This document shows positions 2,301-56,790 of a stretch of 64,000 nucleotides of DNA, one piece after another (within the stretch, counting starts at the first letter, position 1; every line of letters starts with the position of its first letter). The DNA is taken from the NCBI GenBank assembly GCA_951406725.2, contig OX597826.1, positions 55,304,001 through 55,368,000 of the forward strand, written 5' to 3'. Below the pieces are notes generated by a model. That model worked only from the letters and a program-made list of their open reading frames with translations, made no database searches and had not been told where the DNA came from. The translations under genes were made by a program, and so were the position numbers. The DNA is from Octopus vulgaris. Its lineage: Eukaryota.

Positions 2301-3193
2301 ATGCACAAGAAAATAACACCTTAACGTTTAGAATAAAATCTAGGATACCGGCAAATTCGTGATGCTGTTTAGCGGCAGAAATATCTCTATAAGAATACAA
2401 CTATAACATTTTTGCCATCTAGTGTGAAGCTTAAAGGTTCTGGCTTTGCAAGCCATTCTGAAATACGAGAAAAACAAGCAAAGAACTTTGCTCATTTTCC
2501 CGCCTTGGGAAAACTGCATCGAGGCTCTTTGACCTAATTTTAATAAGACCCGACTTTTCTGGAATTACACCATACCGTCATATAAAAGAAGGGTATTGCT
2601 CGATATAAATTGAGATATACAAATCGACAGAATGGTCACAAAACGAACGGAATTCTTTTATTTACAGGCATGCTCAACCAAAGCTGAACAAGAGGTAAAT
2701 AACAGTATTTAATGCTTACTCGAAACTGAAATATTCAATATGCGATTTGCTAGACACAACAGCCATTTTTGATTGCGTCACTTCCTACAATGTTACCATC
2801 TTTGCCCTCCACGTAAAAGTAAAACAAGAAAAGGATGGCAAAGGGTGTTGTTTATTATCCAACAACGAAACCTTCGTGGCTCATTTGATCTAATTTCAAT
2901 ATACAGCTCTAACAACGGAAGGACATTGCACAATTTAAAATGAGATATATAATTCAACAGAATAATCATGCGGTGAATTTAATTATAGGTTTACTAAAAG
3001 TATCAGAATGCAATTTGCTACGTAAAGCAACCACATTTTGTTCAATACGGACAACTAGAGAATTACAAATAATGTTTCATGCCAGCAAGAAAGAGAAGCA
3101 ATGTCAGGCATACAGTTCAATAGTTAAGTGATGAGAAATTCTGTATATTATTTACATCATCTTGTTTGTTATTAACACAACGTTTCTTCAGTT

Positions 3194-3482
3194 GTACCAT
3201 GCAGCCGTGGTAGGTTATACAGGGGTGAAACATGCCACCCCCTCAAAATAAGGGTAGACGAACATCGCAAAACTGTGACACAAGGAGATATTGATAAATC
3301 GGGTATAGCTGATCATGTATGGAAAAATGGAGACTACCTCCCCCTGTGGGATGTAGTTAAAATAATAGACAGAACACCACTGGAAAGTACGAAAACTAAA
3401 AGAAGCAGCAAATATGCTAGGACAAAACAACCTCCTAAGCAGACCGAGTGTAGATATGAGCAGCATGTGGGAACCGGTATTC
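3194..3482 (+). pseudogene. Penelope GIY-YIG endonuclease C-terminal fragment
   Basis: Translates VPCSRGRLYRGETCHPLKIRVDEHRKTVTQGDIDKSGIADHVWKNGDYLPLWDVVKIIDR, then after a frameshift HHWKVRKLKEAANMLGQNNLLSRPSVDMSSMWEPV. This matches the PLE pattern PC.CG..Y.GET...L..R..EH...S.IA.H...R..KEA. Confidence 0.88.
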
Positions 3483-3714
3483 AGGCAGCGAGCTGACAGA
3501 AACGTTAGCACGCCGAGCGAAATGCGTAGCCGTATTTCGTCTGCCGTTACGTTCTGAGTTCAAATTCCTCCGAGGTCGACTTTGCCTTTCATCCTTTCGG
3601 GGTCGATTAAATAAGTACCAGTTACAGACTGGAGTCGATACAATCGACTTAATCCGTTTGTCTGTCCTTGTTTGTCTTCTCTGTGTTTAGCCCCTTGTTG
3701 GTAGTAAAGAAATA
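3483..3714 (+). mobile_element. tRNA-derived SINE, family B (young tail), inserted into the Penelope ORF
   Basis: Head ggcagcgagctgacagaaacgttagc...gagttcaaattcc, conserved core gaggtcgactttgcctttcatcctttcggggtcgat, tail ...gtagtaaagaaata. Flanked by ggtatt on both sides. Confidence 0.92.
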
Positions 3715-3780
3715 GGTATTAAGGTAGGATAGAAAAATATTAGATTTATAGGCCCTAAAATTCACTCTATAATTGCCCAC

Positions 3781-3853
3781 GGGCATATGGCGTAGTGATT
3801 AAGAGCGCGTGCTACTAACCCCAAGATTCCGAGTTCGATTCCAAGCAGTGACC
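3781..3853 (+). promoter_or_regulatory. tRNA-like sequence (Pol III A/B boxes) inside the Penelope pLTR
   Basis: A box tggcgtagtgatt, anticodon-like arm gcgtg-ctactaa-cccc, B box gagttcgattcc. A better-preserved copy lies at 44103-44168. Not a bona fide tRNA (poor acceptor stem). Confidence 0.75.
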
Positions 3854-3952
3854 TGAACACTAATAGTAATAATATTAATAATAATAATGAGGATGATGAT
3901 AAACATGGAAAAATACCTTAGGGATGAGAACCCAGGTTCGAAATTTCCCCAA

Positions 3953-3990
3953 GACACCTGAAGAAGGCTAGAGGGTATATCAGCGGAAAC
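3953..3990 (+). ncRNA. Minimal type-I hammerhead ribozyme (PLE type), 3' arm deleted in this copy
   Basis: gacac-CTGAAGA-aggct...agcg-GAAAC. The missing GTTgtgtt arm is preserved in the inverted copy at 3158-3187 (revcomp gaaacgttgtgttaat). Confidence 0.7.
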
Positions 3991-4886
3991 AAGATGAGGA
4001 CAAATATCCGTCGAATATAAATAATGTAAATAATAAACTTCAGACATGTTTCGCTCTTATTATAACCTCAACCTTGCAGCATAGACTTCGCTGTGGTTCA
4101 CGATGTAGTGTCAAGAGAGTCTCTTATAAATTTATTATATTGTACACTGGTTGTCGGCAAACAGCTTTTACTCCGTGGTTTTAAATCATGTTAGACAATC
4201 AGGCAGTCATAAAACGAATGAATTCAATTTATTATACGTTTCATTCAATGTTGTGTTACTCTGTTTTATTGCTTCTTTATTTTAAATGCACTTTGAGTGC
4301 TATGAAACCAGATTTCAATACATGCGCCATAACACACAGAACAAACGAAGACTGTTAAAAATTCTCTTTTATTTTGATGTATTTCATTAAATGAAAATAC
4401 ACATCCGTAGATTAGCGCAAGCGGTGAGGAATAATCAGAACGGGAATAGTTCATTCGGTACTGAAAAACCTGGCAGAACTGCAAAGTCCAATCCGTGCTA
4501 CGGAATGGTGGCTTGTGAGCCTCAATGCCCCTGCAAGCTGTGCCAGTGGAGTGTAAATTCCTGGTAAGGAATTCTATACTACCTAGGGCAAAAGATACAG
4601 AAGAGAAAAATAAGGAATACCTCATCTCAGAAATAAATCTGGATTTTCGAACAGAGAAGCTTTCTTCTACACAACATCGACAATAACACCAAAGTTTACA
4701 AAATTCTTATCCAGGTTAAGATTCGATGCTTATATAAACAAAGAAATTTGGAGCCTTAATTAGGAGGGAAATTTAAACTATCACCCGTTTAAAACTTCGT
4801 CTCTTGACATATCGTAGCATACAGCGGAGTATTCTATTCTGGGGAGCTTTTCGTCCAGCTTCCTCTCCACAAATCTCGTATTTATA

Positions 4887-5044
4887 CAGGAGTGGCTGTG
4901 TGGTAAGTAGCTTGTTTACCAACCACATGGTTCCGGGTTCAGTCCCACTGCGTGGCACCTTGGGCAAGTGTCTTCTACTATAGCCTCGGGCCGACCAAAG
5001 GCTTGTGAGTGGATTTGGTAGACGGAAACTGAAAGAAGCCTGTC

Positions 5045-5097
<53 letters not shown>

Positions 5098-5312
5098 TGT
5101 GTGTGTTTGTGTGTCTGTGTTTGTCCCCCTACCATTGCTTGACAACCGATGCTGGTGTGTTTATGTCCCGGTTACTTAGCGGTTCGGCAAAAGAGACCGA
5201 TAGAATAAGTACTGGGCTTACAAAAAAGAATAAGTCCCGGGGTCGAGTTGCTCGATTAAAGGCGATGCTCCAGCATGGCCGCAGTCAAGTAACTGAAACA
5301 AGTAAAGAGAGT
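4887..5312 (+). mobile_element. tRNA-derived SINE, family A, near full length
   Basis: A box tggctgtgtgg, B box ggttcagtccc, CORE-like ccttgggcaagtgtctt, internal (TA)n/(TG)n, tail ...gcatggccgcagtcaa..actgaaacaagtaaa. Many copies in the window. Confidence 0.92.
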
Positions 5313-15394: not shown

Positions 15395-15980
15395 TTTGCT
15401 TCAGTCATTTGATTGCGGCCATGCTGGATCACCGCTTTTAGTCCAATAAATCGACCCCAAGATTTATTCTTTGTAAGTTTGTAAGCCTAGTACTTATTCT
15501 ATCGCTCTCTTTTGCCGAACCACAAAGTTACGGGGTTGTAAATACATCAACATCAGTTGTCAAGCGATAGTGGAGACTCACAAGCACACGCACACATACT
15601 CACACACACATACACACACTCACACACACATATGTATGCGACAGGCTTCTATTAGTTTCCTATTTCTTTACTGCCCACAAGGGGCTACACACAGAGGGGA
15701 CAAGCAAGGACAGACAAACGGATTAAGTCGATTATATCGACCCCAATGCGTAACTGGTACTTATTTAATCGACCCCGAAAGGATGAAAGGCAAAGTCGAC
15801 CTCGGCCGAATTTGAACTCAGAACGCTTCTATCAGTTTCCTTCTACCAAATCCACTCACAAGTGTTTAATCGAGCCGAGACTATAGTAGAAAACACTTAC
15901 CCAAGGTGCAGTGGGACTGAACCCGGAGCCATGTAGTTGGTAAACAAGCTACTCACTACACAGTCACTTCTGCACCTATA
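15395..15980 (-). mobile_element. SINE A interrupted by a 5'-truncated SINE B (15661-15824)
   Basis: 16-bp target duplication gcttctat(t/c)agtttcc at 15645-15660 and 15825-15840 flanks the B copy. Confidence 0.88.
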
Positions 15981-19329: not shown

Positions 19330-20338
19330 GGATATATATATATTCGTACATATATATATATCCATATATATAGACATAGACGCAAATATGCATAGACACA
19401 GATGCATGCGCACGCGTGTATTTGCTCAGTGCTTGAGCGTGTTGACTCTCTGTACTGTGGATATCTCCATACGAATACACATGTGTGTATATAAACTCAC
19501 TTAGTGTATATAATGACTGACTTCACCCTCTTTGTACATACCTATATATATATCTGTATATATGAGTGTGTATGCGTGCATGCATGTGTGTATGTGTTTG
19601 TGCTCGCTTATGTATGTATCTCTTTATATATATGTATATATACATATGCGTGTATGTATATAAAATTATATATATTTATGTAAATTTATATATGTACACA
19701 CACATACATATATATATATACATATATATATTCACATATATATATGTACATATATATACATATATATATTCACATATATATATATGTGCATATATATATA
19801 TAAATATGTCTGTATGTATATATATGTTTATATACATACATACATACACACATACATACATACATACATACATACATACATACATACATACATACATACA
19901 TACATACATACATACATACATACATACATACATACACACATACATACATACATACATACACACATACATACATACATACCTACATACATACATACATACA
20001 TACATACATACATACATACATACATACATACATACATGCCACAACCTTTCCCTCTAGCAGTCGGCCTGACTACCTGCGATTTCGTTTGTCTTGTTTCCCT
20101 ATTGATCTGCATGTATGTTTATCTATTTGGTGATTTATCGATCTGTCTGTACCCCGTGTTTTCATCCGTCCATATCCCCATCTACAGTCGGTTCTTTATC
20201 TCCTTCTCTACATTATGCATGCATTCATGTATGTATGTGTGTACGTATGTATGCGTGTATGTATGTATGCATGCATGCATGTATGTATGTATGTATGTAT
20301 GTAATCTATCTATCTATCTATCTATCAGTCGTTCTGTA

Positions 20339-20385
<47 letters not shown>

Positions 20386-20386
20386 A

Positions 20387-20447
<61 letters not shown>

Positions 20448-20633
20448 CTATCTACCTCTATCTCTCTCCATCTATATATCTATCTCTATATCTCTCTATC
20501 TATCAATCTATCTATATATATATGTATGAATGCATATATATATGTATGTAAGCCTAGTACTTATTCTATTAACGAATCGTAAACATACCAGCATCAGTTG
20601 TCAAGCAGTATTGGGGGTGTTGGGACAAACACA

Positions 20634-20689
<56 letters not shown>

Positions 20690-21724
20690 TGTATACGACG
20701 GGCTTTTCTCAGTTTCCGTCCACTAAAGAAATTCAAAAGCTTTATTCGACCTGAGGCTATGGTAAAAGACACTTGCGTAAGGTGCCACGTAACGGGACCG
20801 AACCCAGAACCATGTGGTCGGTAAGCAAGCTACTTATCCCACTGCCACTCCTGTGCCTAACACACACACACACACACGCACACACACATATATATATATA
20901 TATCTGTTTGCTTATATCCATTTATCTATATATCATTATCTGTCTCTCCATTCAAATATACATACGTGTGCGCGCCTATTTGTGTATAAATGTATGTAAG
21001 TGTGAGGATGTGTGTGTGTGTGTGCGTTTGCCTATGCATGCGCCTGTTTGCGTGCACGAGAGCTCCTATACATAACCATATACTATAAATGCACGAAATT
21101 ACGTATACACATAAGTATAGACGAACGCACGTATGTATGTCGTAAGCCGTGTACATATACCCATCAGGAATTTTGTTGTTTTAAAATCTTCTATAGATTC
21201 CCAATAATTGGATATTCGGTGACATCAAATACTGATTGGATTCTGGGGGTAGAAGGATTCTGTTTTGACTCGTGCTTACATAATTTAGGCGGCGGATAAT
21301 AAAACAATACGAAATAGATATGTTGATACGGGTATATGCATGTGTACATGAATGTATGTGCCTGAAATTTAGATATTAGCGATACATATGTATGTATGTA
21401 AGTATGTATGTATCTATAAATACACACAGACACACATACACACACACACGCGCACACACACACGCACACACACATATATATTTATGTATATGTCTCTATA
21501 TGTGTGTCTGTATACATATATATCTTCATGTGTATGTCTGAATGTATACATGTGTGTGTATGTGTGTGTGTAGAGTATATATACATGTATATTTCTATAT
21601 TATATATATATATACATACACACGCATATTTCTACATACGCTTAGATGCAAACTTAAAATATACACATATAATCACAGATATATATAGATATTACTATAT
21701 AGATATATACATACATACATACGA

Positions 21725-21771
<47 letters not shown>

Positions 21772-21944
21772 TGTGTGTGTTTATATTCACACCTACACAC
21801 ACACACACACATACACATATGTATATATTGATATGGAAATATACTTCTTATATGTATATACGTATATATCTTTCTATGTATGTGTCTATATATTTATACA
21901 CGCTCCTACATACATACATACACACACACAAACATATATATGTG

Positions 21945-22012
<68 letters not shown>

Positions 22013-22070
22013 GGTATGTATGTATATATGTATATATGTGTATATTGGTGTTTATGTGTATATCTGTGTT
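18945..22070. repeat. Compound (TA)n/(TAGA)n/(TACA)n/(CA)n microsatellite region
   Basis: Direct inspection. Confidence 0.92.
20545..20857 (-). mobile_element. SINE family A copy
   Basis: gtaagcctagtacttattctat...(CA)n...cagtttccgtc...gccactcctgtgccta. Confidence 0.85.
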
Positions 22071-22645
22071 TTGCTGTTTCTGCCTTTAGTATATATGTGT
22101 GCTTTTTCTTCATAGTTACAAGTGTTCTTTAAATAAATTTGGTTATTCCTGTTTCAATATGAACATCAAAGATAACGAAGTAATAAAAGTTATTTTATTT
22201 CAGAAATTATTGAGTATAAACCTATGTTCTTGTCTCCTTACTAACATAACAGTTTTCTCGCGGCTTTCATGGAAGTCTCTAAAAGCAATTCTACAAATAG
22301 AAATTGAAAAAAAAAAAAAAAAAGAGCGTTGCTTGTTGGACCCGGTGGCTGTGAGCTTTTGTCGGTTATTTGATGTAGTTTTAAACATTCATTCACATAG
22401 AAACAAGTTTCGAATCTCCATCGCAGTCGTTGCTGTTTAATTTGTTTTGGTGATTAGATTTCGACCATGACGGAAGGAGGTGCCATCATGAATGATTTAG
22501 TCGCTCGAATTCGACGATGGTACTTATATGTAATACTTATGTTATTGGGTATTTTTATCAGAACCGTTAAGTGCCATTGAGACGAACAAGCCAACACCAG
22601 TTGTTAAGCGGGGTTTGCGTAACAGACACAAACACACACACAATA

Positions 22646-22782
22646 AGGCGGCGAGCTGGCAGCATCGTTAGCACGCCGGGCGAAATGCTTAGCGGTATTT
22701 CGTCTGCTGTTACGTTCTGGGTTCAAATTCCGTCGAGGTCGACTTTACCTATTTGTAACCCCTTGTGGGCAATAAAGAAATA
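22646..22782 (+). mobile_element. SINE family B, internally deleted
   Basis: aggcggcgagctggcagcatcgttagc head joined to the ccccttgtgggcaataaagaaata tail. Confidence 0.85.
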
Positions 22783-24136
22783 ACAAATACACACACACGC
22801 ATACGCACGTTCATACACAAGCCCACACACACACACACACATGAAATTGAATCAGTGGAGTAAATGCCTGTCCGTTCAGGAAACATTCAATGTAATGCGT
22901 TGCGTAATTCTGAGGACATTTATTAAAATGATTTGTAATAATTATTATAATATGTTAACTAAGACCCATTTCGTCCTTCTTTGCTTTTAGCCTCTGGATT
23001 CCGGTTGTGTGCCGGAGACAATGTTAAGTACGATGTCTTAAATAACGCACACAGCAACTATTTAAGACATCGTACTCGTACCAAAGTTCAAACCCCTTCT
23101 AAGCAGTGGAATATCGGAGATGCTAGAAATCTCGGCAACATTGTCATAAGAGGAAAGTGGAAGATAAAAGTAACAATAAACATTAGTTAAGAAGACCAAC
23201 TATCTGCGTTGAAGACATAAACGGTTACCACACCGGCAGTAGCCGTGTTGTGTTATTCACAAGTCGGGATAAGCAAAGATTGTGAGTTCGAGTCACCAAC
23301 GGAGCGGAGCATTTTCTATAGGCACAGACCAGTCTCTGGGTTTAAGAAGCTGTTTTGGGTTTAGTCCCACTGCAAGGCATCATGGGAAAGTGTCTGTTGC
23401 TGTAACCCCGGGCCGATCAATGCCTTGTGAGGGAATTTATTAGACGGAAACGGAGTGGAAAGTTACCGCCTAGCAACAAATATCACTACTTGTCAGTATG
23501 GATTCGCCTCTCCAATCCTAGTAGCAATACTACCGATTAGCCAAGATTCATATGTTCTCAGTCATAATTTCTGACAGTCACAAAGCCACATAATGTGGTG
23601 GGAGGAATTTAGTTGATATTATCAGCTTCAGTATGGTAGCTTATCTCGGTCTCCAAAGAAGAAATACCGTTAAGCATTTTGTAAGGCGTATGCTAACGAT
23701 CCTGCCGGCTCTCCGCCTTCAACAACACACATCAAGAACAACAATAAACATAGCAGCAATAATCCTTTCTACCATAAGAACAAGGTCTAAAAATTTGGCG
23801 GTGGTGGCAAGTCGATTTTATTGAACCCAGTGCTTGAATAAGCATCAGTAAGTAATCCACTTCTCTAGACATTACTCCTTCCACAACGTTAAACAGGTCA
23901 ATATTTTAGGGGTGACAACACCATATATGCAGTCCCTAACATCGTGACCACTACGAGTAACTCAAGGAATCACTTTTGGTTGTCTGGTATGCTAGAAATA
24001 ACACACAACCCTCCTTCACACGATACAGTGTCGTTTAAAAAAAAAGAAAGGACACATTGGATGGTTGATGTAGTCTCATCGTTTTGACAAGTTTACCCCA
24101 GCAAGATGGCCTAGGGTCTAAATAATAATAATAATA

Positions 24137-24477
24137 GACAACGTGTCTCTAAAAGAAATGGAGAAACTCTCAAAATACAAAGACCTGGAAATAGAGGTAA
24201 CTAGAATGTGGAATCTGAAAACAGAAACAATTCCTATCATAGTAGGTGCATTAGGCATGATAAAAAAAATATTCAGACAAATACATAACAAAAACACCAG
24301 GACTTACAAACACATATAACATACAGAAAATTGCACTACTAGGCACTGCACACATCCTACGCAGAACACTTTCCATACAATAACCATCAGAGCATCACAA
24401 CAAATCACAGCACATACCCAAGGCACACAGAACTGTGCTCGGTAGTGAAGTGAAAGCACGCTATAAAAATAAAACTA

Positions 24478-24480
<3 letters not shown>
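24137..24480 (+). mobile_element. 5'-truncated Dong/R4-type LINE 3' end in (TAA)n
   Basis: Almost identical to 25339-25687 (one extra A and a few other differences); (AAT)n on both sides. Confidence 0.93.
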
Positions 24481-24559
<79 letters not shown>

Positions 24560-24563
<4 letters not shown>

Positions 24564-24752
24564 TTTCAAATTTTGTTACAAGGCAGGTCGTGGAAGGTGG
24601 GGACGAGTCGATTACATTGACCCTAGTGTTCAACTGGAACTTATTTTTATCGACCCCGAAAGTATAAAAGGCAAAGTCAACCTCAGCGGAACTTGAAATC
24701 AGAACGTAAGCATTTCGTCCCACAAGCTAACGATTCTGCTAGCTCGCCGCCT
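24560..24752 (-). mobile_element. SINE family B (older tail)
   Basis: Reverse core and head ...aacgattctgctagctcgccgcc. Confidence 0.85.
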
Positions 24753-24754
24753 TA

Positions 24755-24831
<77 letters not shown>

Positions 24832-24833
24832 GT

Positions 24834-25684
24834 CCATGGTAAATACTGGACTAAACTAAACGCAAAAGAAATAGACAAAGAAAAATCCCAGCAATGGTTG
24901 AGAAGCTCAGGACTCAAAGCAGAAACAGAGGGATTTTTAATTGCAGCACAAGACCAAAGCCTCCCCACCAGAAATTACCAAAAACATGTAATGAAAAGAA
25001 ATATTACAAGTAACTGCAGAATATGTGGAGATGGACAAGAAACAATAAATCATATTATCTCTAGCTGCCCAGTCCTGGCTAAGAAGGAATATATTCACAG
25101 ACATGACAGAGTTGGAACTTACATACATTGGAAGCTATGCCAACATTATGGAATAACAACAGAAAAAAGATGGTATAGGCACACACCAGAAAAGGTCACA
25201 GAAAACGAGAAAGCAACCATACTCTGGGATATGCCGATACACACAGATAGAGAAATTAAGGCCAACAGACCAGATATAGTTGTCAGAGACCATGAAGAAA
25301 AAAAATGCTTTCTAATTGATGTATCAGTACCGGCAGATGACAACGTGTCTCTAAAAGAAATGGAGAAACTCTCAAAATACAAAGACCTGGAAATAGAGGT
25401 AACTAGAATGTGGAATCTGAAAACAGAAACAATTCCTATCATAGTAGGTGCATTAGGCATGATAAAAAAATATTCAGACAAATACATAACAAAAACACCA
25501 GGACTTACAAACACATATAACATACAGAAAATTGCACTACTAGGCACTGCACACATCCTACGCAGAACACTTTCCATACAATAACCATCAGAGCATCACA
25601 ACAAATCACAGCACATACCCAAGGCACACAGAGCTGCGCTCGGTAGTGAAGTGAAAGCACGCTATAAAAATAAAAATAAAACTA

Positions 25685-25687
<3 letters not shown>
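24834..25687 (+). mobile_element. 5'-truncated Dong/R4-clade non-LTR retrotransposon inserted in (TAA)n
   Basis: Open reading frame to 25584, ~100-nt 3' UTR, and (AAT)n on both sides. Confidence 0.95.
24898..25584 (+). CDS. C-terminal CCHC zinc knuckle and restriction-like (PD..D..K) endonuclease of an R4/Dong LINE (partial ORF, no true start)
   Basis: AAQDQSL.TRNY, CRICG...ETINHIISSC, RHD, RPDIVV...LIDV...EKLSKYKDL, PIIVGALG; uninterrupted frame. Confidence 0.93.
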   Translation: MRSSGLKAETEGFLIAAQDQSLPTRNYQKHVMKRNITSNCRICGDGQETINHIISSCPVLAKKEYIHRHDRVGTYIHWKLCQHYGITTEKRWYRHTPEKVTENEKATILWDMPIHTDREIKANRPDIVVRDHEEKKCFLIDVSVPADDNVSLKEMEKLSKYKDLEIEVTRMWNLKTETIPIIVGALGMIKKYSDKYITKTPGLTNTYNIQKIALLGTAHILRRTLSIQ

Positions 25688-25741
<54 letters not shown>

Positions 25742-26346
25742 CATAATAATAATAATAATAACAACAATAATAATAACAATAACAATGATAATAATAATAA
25801 TCACCGTAACAACAACCACATACCTCGTTAGGTTCTTATATCCATGCTCAGCTGTTAGTAGATTTGCTATCTTCTGAAACAGGTTTCTTACCGTCTTCAG
25901 TAACAACACACAACGCTGTAAAATATAGTCCAGAAGATTAAGACAATTAATGTACTGAACGAAAAGGAATGCTTAATTAATTAATATTACACTAGTAATG
26001 AGAGAATACAATCATTAGTGATAATTAAAATACTTGTCAGGCTTGACAGGGGAGGTAACTTTGAAGCTAGGATTGATTTGAATTTAAATGGCGGCGTGTA
26101 AGGAGACGTTAACTGTAAGAGAAATTCGTGAAGCAAAGCAGCAGCAGTAGCATTATCGACTCCTTTCGGATCTTATTCCTTAACCGCTCGGCCGGCCGTT
26201 GCTACATCGTATTATTTCCTTAATAAGCCGTGTATGTCTACATCTAAAGATTCACAGATATCTTTCGCTGATACAAATCTTGAGATATGTAATAAACAAA
26301 GAACAACGATTGGGTGGCGAGCGGGACGGAAACAATTTATAGCATC

Positions 26347-26382
<36 letters not shown>

Positions 26383-26389
26383 GTATATG

Positions 26390-26483
<94 letters not shown>

Positions 26484-26588
26484 TAAGTATTAAATGTAGA
26501 TGTAGATGTAGAAGTAAAGGGAAAAGATTAAGGAAAGAAAGAAGTAGGGGAAGTAGAAGAACTACGAGTGGATGATGAAGAGAGAGAC

Positions 26589-26648
<60 letters not shown>

Positions 26649-27189
26649 TGATGATATAATAATAATGATAATAATAATAATAAGAGCAACAACAATAACA
26701 AGGATGCTGATAAATAAGAAGAAGGAGAAGAAACAGCTGCTAATGTTTCTAATATCTGTATTCGCTAAGTGATACGAAATCTATGTAATGCAACTAATTG
26801 ACTGAAGAACATCACTTAGCTATACACACTGGCATATTGTATTGGCGTATCTATATTGTTGAACATCTCTAATGGACACTGGCACCTGTCAAAGAGAATT
26901 AAGCAGTCTTTAGGCAATCGAAGAAAAACCAAAACTTTTAATGCAGACAGATAATGAAGTTCAGAGACGACTCTTGAGAGAAGAACTGAAGTTTTCTTAT
27001 TCAGCTGTAAATAAACACATCGAAGATTCAAGAGCGCTGTTCAAATATTCCGATATTTTTCATATTTACAGCAACATAAATCTTCAAACCAACTGGATCG
27101 ATAACAGAACAGTGTAATAGAAAGATCTTGAGTTCGCATTTCCACAACGTTGAGTTGTACTCTTTATTAGGCATTCTCGGACCAATGAC

Positions 27190-27400
27190 AGAGTTTGTAT
27201 TTGGTTGTGATCGTTGGTTCTGCTACAAGAAGCAGCTGAATTACCCTCACATTTCATTCTGCCCATTTTAACAAAATGCAGTTGGATAATGTTAGACCCA
27301 GAGAGAAGATTGGAAAATGAGATTGAATGATCGTAAACGACTGACATCTGATGAAATGTCTCCAGGATTAGGTCAGACCTGGGGCTAAAGGACAACAACA
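27190..27400 (+). mobile_element. Old diverged interspersed repeat (related pieces near 11180-11340, 11390-11490 and 23960-24120)
   Basis: Shared degenerate motif ctg(c/t)tagaaatagca...ccctcaca...ggataat, ending in ggggctaaa..(aac)n. Family unassigned. Confidence 0.4.
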
Positions 27401-28009
27401 ACAACATGATTGTGTAAGTTAAAATGGTTATGTTGAACAAGATGATGACAGCAGTTTGGCAGAAACTTTACAATGTCGATCTAAATGCATTATGTGTTTT
27501 CCTATTCTCAAATCTCGTCATGGAAAGTTTGACTTTTATCTTACAGGGATCGACAAATGAGTGGAACCCATTTTAACTCATAAGACAAGATGCTCAAGAT
27601 AATTCAAGTGGCATCGAACACCGGAAACAAAATCATAACGAAATTTTAACCGCCCAACCGCGCCTCTAACTATTGTATCATTGACATGCAGTGTTACATG
27701 AAAACACCTGGCCTAGTAGTGAAGGTGATCAGCACATAATCATACAATCGTGGGTTCAATACTTGACCGTGCAGAGAATTATGTCAGTCAGCAAAGTATT
27801 ATATGTTTTGTTGCTAATATTCTAAACGAGTACTAGCCCGGTGTTGGTGTCGAATTCTCCCCCGCCAGCAGTTACGACTGAGACTTTTTGCTGTTCAGCG
27901 ATGACGGGGCCAGGAAGGTATTTCAATTTTCTCCCGAATACATAGAAACCTAAAGCATTTAGTAAAAGTACACAAACATATTCACACACATACACATACA
28001 TATATAAAT

Positions 28010-28168
28010 ATATACGACGGGCTTCTTTCAGTTTCCGTCCACCAAATCCACTCATAAGGCTTTGGTCGGTTCGAGGCTGTAGTAGAAGACACTTGCCCGA
28101 GATGCCACTGAACCCGGAACTATGTGGTTGGTAAGCACTACTTACCACACAGCCACTCCTACACCTAT
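28010..28168 (-). mobile_element. SINE family A 5' half
   Basis: acgacgggcttctttcagtttccgtcc...cacacagccactccta. Confidence 0.88.
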
Positions 28169-28345
28169 ATGATTACTAAACATGAAGAAACAGAATCGAA
28201 GATGACTGAATTGATGGCTGACATGGGCTGGTTCTCAGCATCGGTGTGTCAGTTGTTAGGAAACATAGATGAAAAATAACAAGAGTGTTACCTTACAATA
28301 AATGGATTCAAACGGAACGTCCAATGGACAAAAGTAGATCGTAAA

Positions 28346-28553
28346 CATGAAGGTGGGGAAAAGTTCCTGTTTTTAAGGGTATCACTAAAGGCATGGTTAG
28401 AGGCCCAGCATTCCGAGTTCTTTTACAGGGCTTAGAAAAACTAAGGGACCTTTACAATAAGTGACTTTGAGAAAGAAATATGTTGAATAAAATCATAATT
28501 GACTCATTCTGCTATAATTTCTTTTACCCAAAACCTATCAGAAACCCCTCGTA
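28346..28553 (+). mobile_element. Mariner-derived non-autonomous element
   Basis: Contains a transposase C-terminal remnant (..SEFFYRA*KN.. / ..KYVE*) and ends in ccctcgta; matches 14581-14777 in reverse. Confidence 0.65.
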
Positions 28554-28599
28554 TGATTGATTGATTGATTCTAGTTTCAGCTCATGAGCTGTGGCCATG

Positions 28600-28644
<45 letters not shown>

Positions 28645-28658
28645 TATGCACACAAACA

Positions 28659-28740
<82 letters not shown>

Positions 28741-29552
28741 AACTATGAAATGTCAGGAGATATGAGATATGAATATACCTCGTATACTACGCAACATCCT
28801 TAGGGTTACGTTTGTTTCGCAAATTACTTCATGTTATATTAATTTTAGCGTAGAAGAAAGTATGCTAACATGTTTGCAGCAATATGCATACTCGGCGTTA
28901 TACAATACAAATGTATATTCACAAATCAAAGCAAATAAAGAAAGCTAGCTCGTCAGATCACCAAGAAGATCAGAGAGTTTGTGTAGTGATTGAAATTTTC
29001 ACGCCACTGCGATCGTCAGCTGAGGGTTCCAGGGGTGTAAACGCAAATCGCGAGAGAAACGCTCAGCCTTACTTTCAATAAAAAGAAAACAAAACATATA
29101 AGTCAAGACTATTTGCAAGACGCAACGAAAATTTTAGGAAAATAAAAATAAGAAATTAGTGGAAATTTTGCCGGTGAATGTATTAAATTATAAGGCAGAA
29201 AAAGAAAGGACTCTCCCCAGATACAAGAGAATATGCTTCAACAAACGAACTCACATAAATAATCTTGCAAACCAAATCCAAAACATATAACCTATTCTGT
29301 ATTGAGCACTCCCCTTTCATTCGTCTTACACACACACACACGCTCACAGGTATATGTATACGGGCAGATGGTGGATATAGCTTACGTTCTCCGTTGACTT
29401 CGTCTATAAAAGGGTTCTGCCTTATATTTCAAGCACTTCCTCTTTTCCTTCTGCATCAATATTATTACAGTACCTTCTGAGTTTTATAAATTTCTAATAC
29501 CATTTACGCTGACGTGAACCATCACAGGCATACTAAATTTAGTGGCTATCTT

Positions 29553-32530
<2,978 letters not shown>

Positions 32531-43020: not shown

Positions 43021-43330
43021 TGCCGTTTCATTATATGCATCACCACCGAGCACCACAACTAGAAGCCGCCTCATCGGAGTAGCGCTCATTGCAAGAAATA
43101 TCGTATCGAATTACATTGGAATACGTGTTTCATAACTATGTACCATGCAAGAAAAATGGTATGTTCGAAAAATTCTTCACGTTGAAAGCAAGAGATACCG
43201 TCAAGTGTTCCTGCAAGATCCTCCTACCAATGTATATTGGGAATAGTTCCTCCAAGAAACCTCCAAAGTACCACAGTAGTGTGGCCACTTGTCAAAGAGA
43301 CCAAGGAGAATAGACCCGTATACCTTAATG

Positions 43331-43562
43331 GGGCGGCGAGATGCCAGAAACGTTAGCACGCCGGGCGAAATGCTCAGCGGTATTTCGTCTGCCGTTACGT
43401 TGTGAGTTCAAATTCCGCCGAGGTCGACTTTGCCTTTCATCCTTTCGGGGTCGATAAATAAAGTACCAGTTACGCACTGGGGTCGATGTAATCGACTTAA
43501 TACCTATGTCTGTCCTTGTTTGTTCCCTCTATGTTTAGCCCCTTGTGGGTAATAAAGAAATA
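43331..43562 (+). mobile_element. SINE family B, full length, young
   Basis: Complete head, core and ...gtaataaagaaata tail. Confidence 0.93.
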
Positions 43563-43899
43563 GGTATTTCTAACTGAAAGGCAAAAATTAGTTTCTGCGA
43601 GATTTGAACTCAGAACGCAAAATATCAGGAAAATATTCTATGCCTTAACAATTCTATCAGTCGATCATTCTTCTATATCTATAGTTAGTTTTAATTGCCT
43701 TTTAAACATTAATATCGTTTATCCTTGAGCATGTATTACAAGGGAGAGAAGTATTACTCGTTACAATCCGGGAATAGTTCCTCCAAGAAACCTCCAAAGT
43801 ATCACCGTTCGATTCTTATTTGAAGTTGCTTCACAAAATGTAGTTCAATAATATCATTCGAGATATCGGCACAACCAAATAATTAAGTTCTACATTTAA

Positions 43900-44257
43900 G
43901 AGATGAGGAATTATGTACATTATTTACAATATTTACATTTAACGGATATTTGTCCTCATCTTCAATGGAGACATATAGAGAAACTCCATCAAAAACTAGC
44001 TCGTCTTTCAAACCATCTAACTTTCCTGTGAAGATGAAAAGACTCAAAGCTAATAGCACCTGGCTTAAAGGATAGGAAAATATTAAATTTATAATTATCC
44101 ACGGGCGTATAGCGTAGTGGTTAAGAGCGCGGGCTACTAACCCCAAGATTCCAGGTTCGATTCCAGGTAGTAATATTTATAATAACATCGAAAAATACCT
44201 TAGGAATGAGAACCCAGGTTCTAAATTTCCCCAAGACACTTGATGAAGGCTGGAGGG
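43900..44257 (+). mobile_element. Penelope-like element remnant (family 1), second copy
   Basis: 43900-43962 is the inverted pLTR end. WRHIEKLHQKLARLSNHLTFL resembles a PLE ORF N-terminus. tRNA-like cassette at 44103-44168; truncated hammerhead gacacTTGATGAaggctggaggg at 44235-44257. Confidence 0.82.
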
Positions 44258-44599
44258 CATAAAGGCTGCTGTAGTTACCTGACATGCAATATCTACATCG
44301 CGCAAGAAATATGAAATGTGAGTCTCAGTTATGTATGACATAGCTCAGATCAATGGATCCGTGACTTGCACTTAGTTGACTATTTAAAACCCATAAATGG
44401 GCAAAGCAAATGCTGATAATGGTTTAAAGGTAAACAATAACAAGAGAAGTAGCAACAGCAAGAAGGAGAACGGCAGCAGTAGCAGCAGCAGCAGCAGCAG
44501 CAGCAGCTTCTACAAGAATGGTCGTGACGTTCGTATCATTAGATGATATATTCAACCAGTAAATCGCTTTACGTACTTAAGTTCTTCGTCCCTTATGAA

Positions 44600-49744: not shown

Positions 49745-50306
49745 AGCGGCGAGCTGGCAGAATCGTTAGCGCACCTGATGAAATGCTTAGCGGTATTTCG
49801 TCTGTCTCTACGTTCTGAGTTCAAATTCCGCCGAAGTCGATTTTGCCTTTCGTCCTTTCGGGGTCGATTAAATATGTACCGGTCACGCACTGGGGTCGAT
49901 ATAATCGACTTAATCCGTTTGTCTGTCCTTGTTTGTCCTCTCTGTGTTTAGCCCCTTGTGGGTAGTAAAGAAATAGGTATTTCTCTAGTCGCTACGTTCT
50001 GATTCCAAATTCCGCCGAGGTCGACATTGCCTTTCATCCTTTCGGGGTCGATTAAATGATTACCAGTTACGCACTGGGGTCTATATAATCGACTTAATCT
50101 ATTTGTCTGTCCTTGTTTGTCCTCTCTGTGTTTAGCCTCTTGTGGGTAGTAAAGAAATAGGTATTTCGTTCAAATTCCGCCGAGGTCGACTTTACCTTTT
50201 ATCATTCCGGGGTCGATAAAATAAGTACCAGTTGAACACTGGCGTCGATGTAATCGAATCATCTTCTCCCCCAAACGTATTGCTCTTGATGCAAAATTTG
50301 AAACCA
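49745..50306 (+). mobile_element. Nested or tandem triple SINE B
   Basis: One head, three cores, two young tails and one old tail. Whole array flanked by a 21-bp TSD (49723-49743 / 50304-50324, two mismatches). Confidence 0.9.
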
Positions 50307-56169: not shown

Positions 56170-56790
56170 TCGTTTCTACTCTAGGCCCAAGGTGTGAAAT
56201 TTTGGAGGAGGGGCCAATCGATTAGATCGACCTCAGTACGGAACTGGTTCTTAATTTATCGACCCCGAAAGGATGAAAGGCAAAGTCGACCTCGGCGAAA
56301 TTTGAACTCAGAACGTAGAAACAGACGAAATACCACTAAGCATTGCGCCCGGCGTGCTAACGTTTCTGCCAGCTCGCCGCCTTAAAGAGCCTTTTCCACT
56401 CTAAGCACAAAGCCCGATGTTTGGGTATGCAGGGGCCAGTCTAGTAGATTGACCCCAGTATGCAACTTGTACTTAATTTATCGACCCCGAAAGGATCAAG
56501 GGCAAAGTCCACCTCGGCAGAATTTGAACTCAGAAAGTAGACACAGACGAAATACCTATTTCTTTACTACCCACAAGGGGCTAAACACAGAGGAGACGAA
56601 CAAGGACAGACGAACGGATTAAGTCGATTACATCGACCTCAGTGTGTAACTGGTGCTTAATTTATCGACCCCGAAAGGATGAAAGGCAAAGTCGACCTCA
56701 GCGGATTTTGAACTCAGAACGTAACGGCAGACGAAATACGGCTACGCATTTCGCCCGGCGTGCTAACGTTTCTGCCAGCTCACCGTCTTA
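56170..56790 (-). mobile_element. Three SINE B copies in tandem or nested
   Basis: Three reverse cores atcgaccccgaaaggat..aggcaaagtc.acctc; heads at ~56383 and ~56788. Confidence 0.9.

Follow-up and report, generated by a model that had tools for sequence, protein, structure and literature searches.

A tRNA-like head with Pol III-type promoter boxes in the terminal repeat of a coding Penelope-like element of Octopus vulgaris

In the textbook view, coding retrotransposons use Pol II, and Pol III transcribes only short non-coding passengers. The same expectation is stated for terminal-repeat elements in the available text of one study (PMC10886601), and the relatives of the element described here that have been studied use internal Pol II promoters, so far as the available text of those reports goes (PMC2377424, PMC8557442), which counts against the Pol III reading developed below. 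The closest described systems, PAc of Anolis (PMC11167929) and Penelope of D. virilis (PMC2377424), are characterized in the available accounts by a single reading frame for a reverse transcriptase (RT) plus, at the C-terminal end, a GIY-YIG endonuclease, inverted 5′ arms, a hammerhead in the pseudo-LTR (pLTR) that overlaps the beginning of the frame, a choice of two 3′ ends (the tail), and a promoter located inside the pLTR. The octopus family shares all of these traits. It differs in that an apparently tRNA-derived head with A and B boxes replaces the TATA-less Pol II promoter, in that the unit is free of runs of four T residues (T4), and in that the frame is open without an intron.

The hammerhead likewise resembles the minimal type I ribozymes of metazoan Penelope-like elements. 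The four features listed in the available text of PMC4209133, namely a conserved core, an extra base between positions 9 and 10.1, a G10.1-C11.1 pair, and a palindromic 15.2-16.2, are all present in the octopus family, as are the short stem I and longer stem II. The comparison shows no structural difference, and the cut triplet in this family is GUU.

Three other systems, again cited from the available text, combine some of these parts in different ways. First, the SINE-like Sm-alpha repeats of Schistosoma (reviewed in PMC6765202) also carry a Pol III-type promoter upstream of a hammerhead, but they are non-coding, tandem, and released by ribozyme cleavage, whereas the octopus unit serves a coding element as its repeat, is dispersed or inverted, and has ends that are not set by cleavage. 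Second, the TRIMp3 elements Helenus, Ajax, and Cassandra (PMC10886601) hold a small-RNA-derived Pol III promoter inside the terminal repeat. These are short, non-autonomous LTR elements whose autonomous partners are argued to need Pol II, whereas the octopus head sits in the autonomous element itself. Third, animal non-LTR retrozymes (bioRxiv 10.64898/2026.07.22.740005) are units without coding capacity that derive from pLTRs, contain a type I hammerhead, and are mobilized by Penelope-like enzymes, as are the short octopus copies, but they are defined by head-to-tail arrays, whereas the octopus copies do not appear to form a separate lineage. The available part of that preprint makes no mention of tRNA or Pol III.

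We found no description of a tRNA-headed pLTR in the literature covered, and it is absent from the available text of PMC4209133, PMC8557442, PMC10886601, PMC5786205, and the Octopus vulgaris repeat paper PMC13282606; supplements, repeat databases, and subscription journals lay outside this scope and may hold the family. Judged from the copies in the genome, the octopus element appears to be a real variant of the endonuclease-bearing (EN+) Penelope-like elements, whose pLTR carries a Pol III-type promoter as a family-wide feature.

Two broken copies in the octopus window

The window that we analyzed is a 64,000-nucleotide stretch on a chromosome-scale contig of the 2.8 Gb genome. It holds two copies of the head, and both belong to broken copies of a very abundant, protein-coding Penelope-like element. 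We number the element from the first G of the head in the first copy, such that +1 is window position 3781.

Copy 1 opens with an inverted arm (3110-3186, reverse strand) that runs from the pLTR tail back to the 3′ half of the hammerhead (GAAACGUU plus the 3′ strand of stem I). All of its remaining parts lie on the forward strand, beginning with a 5′-truncated, frameshifted remnant of the C-terminal GIY-YIG endonuclease coding region (3197-3488, 93% to the family). An unrelated, abundant SINE-like repeat (3484-3720) splits the end of the frame, and the last codons, the stop, and a spacer of about 30 nt follow (3715-3780), with a small terminal hairpin that overlaps the start of the head. The head, by alignment a derivative of tRNA-Arg(ACG), occupies 3781-3855, with an A box at 3788-3798 (one change) and a B box at 3833-3841. 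After a (TAA)n repeat and leader (3856-3923), the start codon stands at 3924 and a remnant of a minimal hammerhead at 3953-3982, comprising the 5′ strand of stem I, a CUGAAGA core, and stem II. Stem III and the cut site have been lost, together with the 3′ strand of stem I, in an 18-nt deletion. The pLTR tail (3983-4034) ends at the commonest 3′ end of the family, about +241 from the head.

Copy 2 likewise begins with an inverted arm of pLTR tail (43879-43962, reverse strand), which covers +198 to +272. On the forward strand, an N-terminal coding piece (43962-44069) is joined by a large internal deletion to a shortened spacer (44070-44102), which leads to the tRNA-derived head (44103-44170; A box 44110-44120, B box 44155-44163) and to the 5′ half of the hammerhead (44235-44261), where C3 is changed to U and the copy breaks off within stem II. 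The preliminary description of this DNA had reported both tRNA-like heads, a linker shared by the two copies, flanking Penelope-like coding remnants, and an inverted piece near 3158-3187, and we find each of these where it was placed. It had also reported two hammerhead cores; remnants of both are indeed there, but neither window copy retains a whole hammerhead.

Other repeats are found in the same window. The SINE-like family that interrupts copy 1 is very abundant, with more than 15 window fragments, some nested or in tandem (for example 3484-3720, 43332-43568, 49746-50257, 56218-56785, and 15659-15825). A further repeat with a tRNA head, which contains a (TA)n tract, is present in two copies, at 1131-1770 on the reverse strand, where the middle is triplicated, and at 4888-5290 on the forward strand. 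Near copy 2, a 39-nt direct repeat occurs at 43239-43277 and 43770-43808, 530 nt apart.

The family repeat and its reading frame

From the window fragments, the preliminary description had pieced together a ribozyme (GACAC / CUGAUGA / GGCUG..CAGCC / GAAACGUU / GUGUU) in which one base of stem II was inferred. That sequence, the inferred base included, is the majority in 30 other loci with an intact motif, which came from a search with copy 2 as the query in which 40 of 2,341 first-look candidates were scored. The family majority has the core, bulge, G-C pair, palindromic stem III, and stem I of a minimal type I hammerhead, which neither window copy does. A 24-letter probe over the 3′ half of the hammerhead has 4,043 exact matches versus 0 for the reversed control, and the stems, compared by eye, vary in paired fashion across unrelated families. 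The full core is present in 6 of 40 copies selected by their heads.

From its first base, the head aligns with host tRNA-Arg(ACG) at scores of 69-75, where sets of 1,000 shuffles reach no more than 45-47, and this tRNA is the best among the nine isotype labels compared, not all of which are host tRNAs. It is because of this direct alignment that we regard the head as a derivative of tRNA-Arg(ACG). Standard tools make no call. ARAGORN reports 0 tRNA genes in the 64-kb window. The Rfam check that had been proposed with tRNA and hammerhead models calls neither at 3050-4150, and over the whole window the 150 of 535 Rfam matches listed include only microsatellite-driven miRNA matches. The cloverleaf has decayed, such that an intact copy scores 16.6 bits in Rfam (E 0.68) against a cut-off of 29. 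The A and B boxes of the family head show no mismatch to their consensus, which we took from general knowledge. Separately, matches to the anticodon arm of tRNA-Arg occur in tandem clusters with a spacing of about 200-700 nt in this genome (G000:C2:211887730-211907123; C1:130863997-130899482; C20:5232725-5237986).

Is the head part of the element or a chance SINE insertion? The preliminary description favored the former and expected head and hammerhead to co-occur, and both expectations hold. When loci are selected by their endonuclease sequence, 26/30 continue into the head (scored by eye; the count includes the query locus and four apparent segmental duplicates). When they are selected by the head, 28/40 reach the hammerhead stretch and none reaches another conserved body; the remaining 12 stop early, mostly in the TAA repeat.

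The family unit measures 2,649 nt from head to head and contains one 835-codon RT and GIY-YIG frame, according to a consensus built by upstream walking and scripted polishing, whose depth is low (8-12 copies) in the first few hundred bases of coding sequence. The frame opens 112 nt after the head start with a start codon at +113, the hammerhead core is at +147, and the stop lies about 30 nt before the next head. In the family consensus, the frame runs through an intact minimal hammerhead, and the hammerhead stretch is likewise encoded in frame in the closest full-length homologue (P0009). The preliminary description had missed both this placement of the hammerhead inside the reading frame and the fact that the whole 2.65-kb unit is without Pol III terminators. 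We also weighed the possibility of an intron behind the tail but abandoned it, since no intron is needed to keep the frame open. The frame encodes, in order, an N-terminal domain, an RT (Pfam RVT_1, E 1.5e-10), and a GIY-YIG-type end, whose motif was read from the sequence, Pfam having no match on the two endonuclease pieces scanned. The domains PF00078, PF26215, and PF28514 are shared by 734 homologues. A putative placement in the Poseidon clade reflects domain order and likeness to PAc, the RT tree having been built without named Repbase references. Shares of common words in six other organisms are 0.64-0.80, and the spread of the family across species is read from these values.

A direct pLTR with the hammerhead flanks the frame at both ends. 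The 5′ repeat is contiguous with the frame in L095, L099, L315, L321, L331, and L339, and the 3′ repeat adjoins the frame end among the 30 endonuclease-selected loci. The hallmarks of EN+ Penelope-like elements are present, including 5′ truncation, inverted arms, and a two-step tail. Most sampled insertions are single or inverted and few have a second direct arm, with head-to-tail arrays judged from samples only. Fragments of the family occur in 6/57 evenly spaced 10-kb stretches of the genome, in agreement with a rough estimate of 20,000-30,000 arms genome-wide. Because long copies are diverged from the consensus (88-95% identical) and stops are found in most of them, the family looks inactive. 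In a search of the same genome for a control Penelope family with a 43%-identical protein, all 30 loci retrieved belong to the family under study.

RNA reads were also aligned to one locus (L037), using three raw runs of a related species and one contig set. The reads are unstranded, about three quarters of them continue into unlike sequence, and no pile-up at a start or end was reported, so they speak neither for nor against Pol III. In run X21, an expressed transcript of the related species carries a truncated endonuclease-region copy at L037:1865 (327 reads with the same flank).

Where copies begin and end

An indication of how the head might function comes from the 5′ ends of copies. Exact probes return 802 matches at -115, 896 at -27, 5,148 at +30, and 8,646 at +101, such that copy number is flat upstream and then rises 5.7-fold (about 6-fold) across the 5′ end of the head; per-probe exact-match rates are alike (0.34-0.42). 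We also mapped the 5′ ends of 86 insertions selected by their hammerheads, after removing 4 of 90 loci that were second arms of the same insertion. These ends fall at +110 to +175 (12), +70 to +109 (19), +6 to +69 (13), -19 to +5 (29), and further upstream (13). Among insertions that reach the head start, 29/42 end at -19 to +5, versus about 10% expected from the rate of loss within the head (naive binomial P 7e-20). In an independent set selected by the head, 28/40 copies start at -6 to +8, with the mode at -6/-5. We infer that reverse transcription running off the 5′ end of an RNA, some 13 nt ahead of the A box, would leave such boundaries. On the evidence as a whole, all of it from DNA copies, we assign a probability of roughly 0.6 to the reading that Pol III starts transcription at the head.

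Two observations count against this reading. A hairpin and an ATT motif overlap the start site (-15 to +10), and ATT is the preferred cut of the PAc endonuclease according to the available text of PMC11167929. Moreover, we saw no head-to-end copy, as 0 of about 7 near-full-length copies keep the head in the 5′ repeat. Alternatively, the element could be transcribed by Pol II and the head could be a passenger, derived from a tRNA or SINE fragment that the repeat captured once, with the 5′ boundary produced by fold-back priming at the hairpin, by endonuclease cutting at ATT, or by a chance Pol II start. Indeed, 7/25 scored junctions are fold-backs centered on the hairpin. However, the other 18/25 are not (4 further junctions were left unscored), and the modal start lies on the 5′ side of the inner stem, whereas a stall would leave the 3′ side. 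It also speaks against a passenger that the two boxes are perfect despite decay of the stems, and that an element with a different head sequence (L343, below) has the same box placement. We therefore consider a passenger head unlikely and continue to favor a Pol III start.

A second cluster of 5′ ends (19/74) lies at the TAA repeat and was kept out of the evidence, as it is probably due to microsatellite joining. In many copies (L247, L258, L270, L271, L303, L084, L088, and L089), the junction is between the element's TAA repeat and a (TAA)n tail that belongs to one other repeat family, which suggests insertion into, or microhomology joining with, TAA microsatellites.

At the other end, the short ribozyme-ended RNA envisaged in the preliminary description finds no counterpart among the copies: 27/28 hammerhead-bearing copies end 50-95 nt beyond the cut site (+233 or later), and none ends at it. 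Arm boundaries are not enriched there either (9/86, P 0.74; 1/24 internal 3′ ends), and we rejected the idea that the ribozyme sets copy boundaries for this lack of an excess. Instead, two 3′ ends predominate. Among 132 arm ends beyond +200, 64/132 are at +232-242 and 61/132 at +263-277. For cutting, the hammerhead is predicted to depend on dimerization or on assistance from a protein, and it does not set copy ends.

Copies with head and hammerhead but no ORF, whose existence had been anticipated, are very common and start at the head; by a rough estimate, the end repeat has given rise to about 15,000 such SINE-like copies. They could constitute a separate non-autonomous family, SINE- or retrozyme-like, in which Pol III would make a short RNA that runs from the head as far as the ribozyme or the tail and spreads from solo copies by means of a Penelope-like enzyme. 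Head-bearing copies outnumber spacer-bearing copies about 6:1, and the solo repeat has both promoter boxes and the tail at which reverse transcription would start, so solo copies could be templates. Nevertheless, no substitution splits the arms that start at the head from those linked to coding sequence, and neighbors do not sort by class (nearest-neighbor labels agree in 60/113 cases versus 57.7 expected, P 0.39). The ORF-less sequence is the autonomous element's own repeat, overlapping its first codons; solo copies retain the first 55 codons, and copy ends ignore the cut site. Among the traits of tRNA-derived SINEs (SINE2), the A/B-box head is thus present and a non-coding lineage of its own is absent. 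A separate family, as the preliminary description had proposed, is consequently the least probable of the readings considered here and, in our estimation, a poor candidate. Since there is neither a diagnostic substitution nor clustering apart from the coding-linked arms, the short copies are best read as SINE-like by-products of the same master sequence, although a solo copy may now and then act as a template.

Pol III terminators, a second element, and a possible mechanism

If Pol III starts at the head, the length of its RNA would depend on terminators. The sense strand of the 2,649-nt unit has 0 runs of TTTT versus 30 runs of A4. The absence of T4 has P values of 0.002-0.08 across nulls. 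In a synonymous permutation null, 3.0 T4 runs are expected (P about 0.025), and this null is well calibrated, with 120 T4 observed versus 122 expected in 27 control Penelope-like frames. T4 density is 2.6 per kb in controls of matched T content and 0.51 per kb in decayed copies of the family. Among 30 host tRNA genes, 24/30 have a T run within 40 nt, and because the first downstream run is exactly T4 in 10 of them, T4 probably terminates Pol III in this host. It counts against purging of T4 that G4 runs are likewise absent from the unit and that 4/27 control frames also lack T4. We conclude that the unit is T4-free, as long Pol III transcription would require, and that selection for T4 loss appears modestly supported.

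The controls came from 79 metagenome and 4 genome contigs, from which near-duplicates and short stretches were discarded by eye, leaving 71 stretches for scoring. They include 27 long open frames as well as 20 downstream repeats plus 4 other hammerhead sites, several of which represent one host family and are not independent. A search of viral contigs for control Penelope-like elements found none. Penelope-like elements also occur at L422-L425, on contigs that are binned with prokaryote genomes, probably as a result of host contamination. One control family without A and B boxes (L356:3501-5900, L368:3501-6120) has a T4-free coding stretch of 1.9-2.1 kb and a very T-rich repeat, and on this account we rejected the notion that T4-free frames are always paired with heads.

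A second case comes from metagenome contig JGI1357J11328_10009043, in which L343:25-2815 is a Penelope-like element that is intact, tandem, and 2,791 nt long. Its A and B boxes are perfect, stand 101 nt before its hammerhead (94 nt in the octopus family), and are followed by a TAA repeat, a placement matched by 0/60 shuffles. No box pair was found in 19 other loci examined downstream of the frame, several of them from one family. The L343 head has no clear homology to the octopus head; its best tRNA score is 51, with shuffles reaching 48, and Rfam gives no tRNA match. L343 has two T4 runs and no T5, where 3.9 T4 are expected (P 0.19), which counts against T4 purging. In the RT tree, it groups loosely with the octopus family (support 0.91), together with the T4-rich L365 and L424, which also counts against it; the repeats of those T4-rich members lie outside the contigs examined. 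L343 is possibly an active second example, from an unrelated host, and it may indicate that Pol III-driven Penelope-like elements exist in more than one host.

A single repeat thus holds the head, the start codon, the in-frame minimal hammerhead, and the two-step tail, and it is present at both ends of the 835-codon frame. In the mechanism that we propose, Pol III would start at the head, meet no terminator, and read on. The element protein would then start reverse transcription inside the RNA at a tail, at +235-241 or +263-277; internal priming at two sites has been shown in vitro for the anole element PAc, according to the available text of PMC11167929. Priming at the first tail would yield ORF-less copies of 240-280 nt with head and hammerhead, and priming at a later tail would yield longer, 5′-truncated copies. 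In L339, one unit's 3′ end is followed by the repeat and frame of a second unit, an arrangement that fits templates longer than one unit.

A bolder version of this proposal is that the element has swapped its Pol II promoter for a tRNA-derived Pol III promoter and purged TTTT over 2.65 kb, such that Pol III makes the coding RNA at more than unit length, and translation would then have to do without a normal cap. Pol III RNA is uncapped, which counts against this version, and we offer it tentatively, as doubtful.

In a coding element with a reverse transcriptase of its own, Pol III boxes at the promoter position are unexpected. If the boxes drive a long RNA, Pol III would naturally be making a messenger of nearly 3 kb, on which cap-independent translation could be tested. 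If they drive short RNAs only, the family would still show a route by which the end repeat of a Penelope-like element can itself become the source of SINE-like copies, here about 15,000 by the rough estimate. In either case, the defined 280-nt unit, with promoter, start codon, hammerhead, and priming tail, offers a system for testing the role of the hammerheads of Penelope-like elements.
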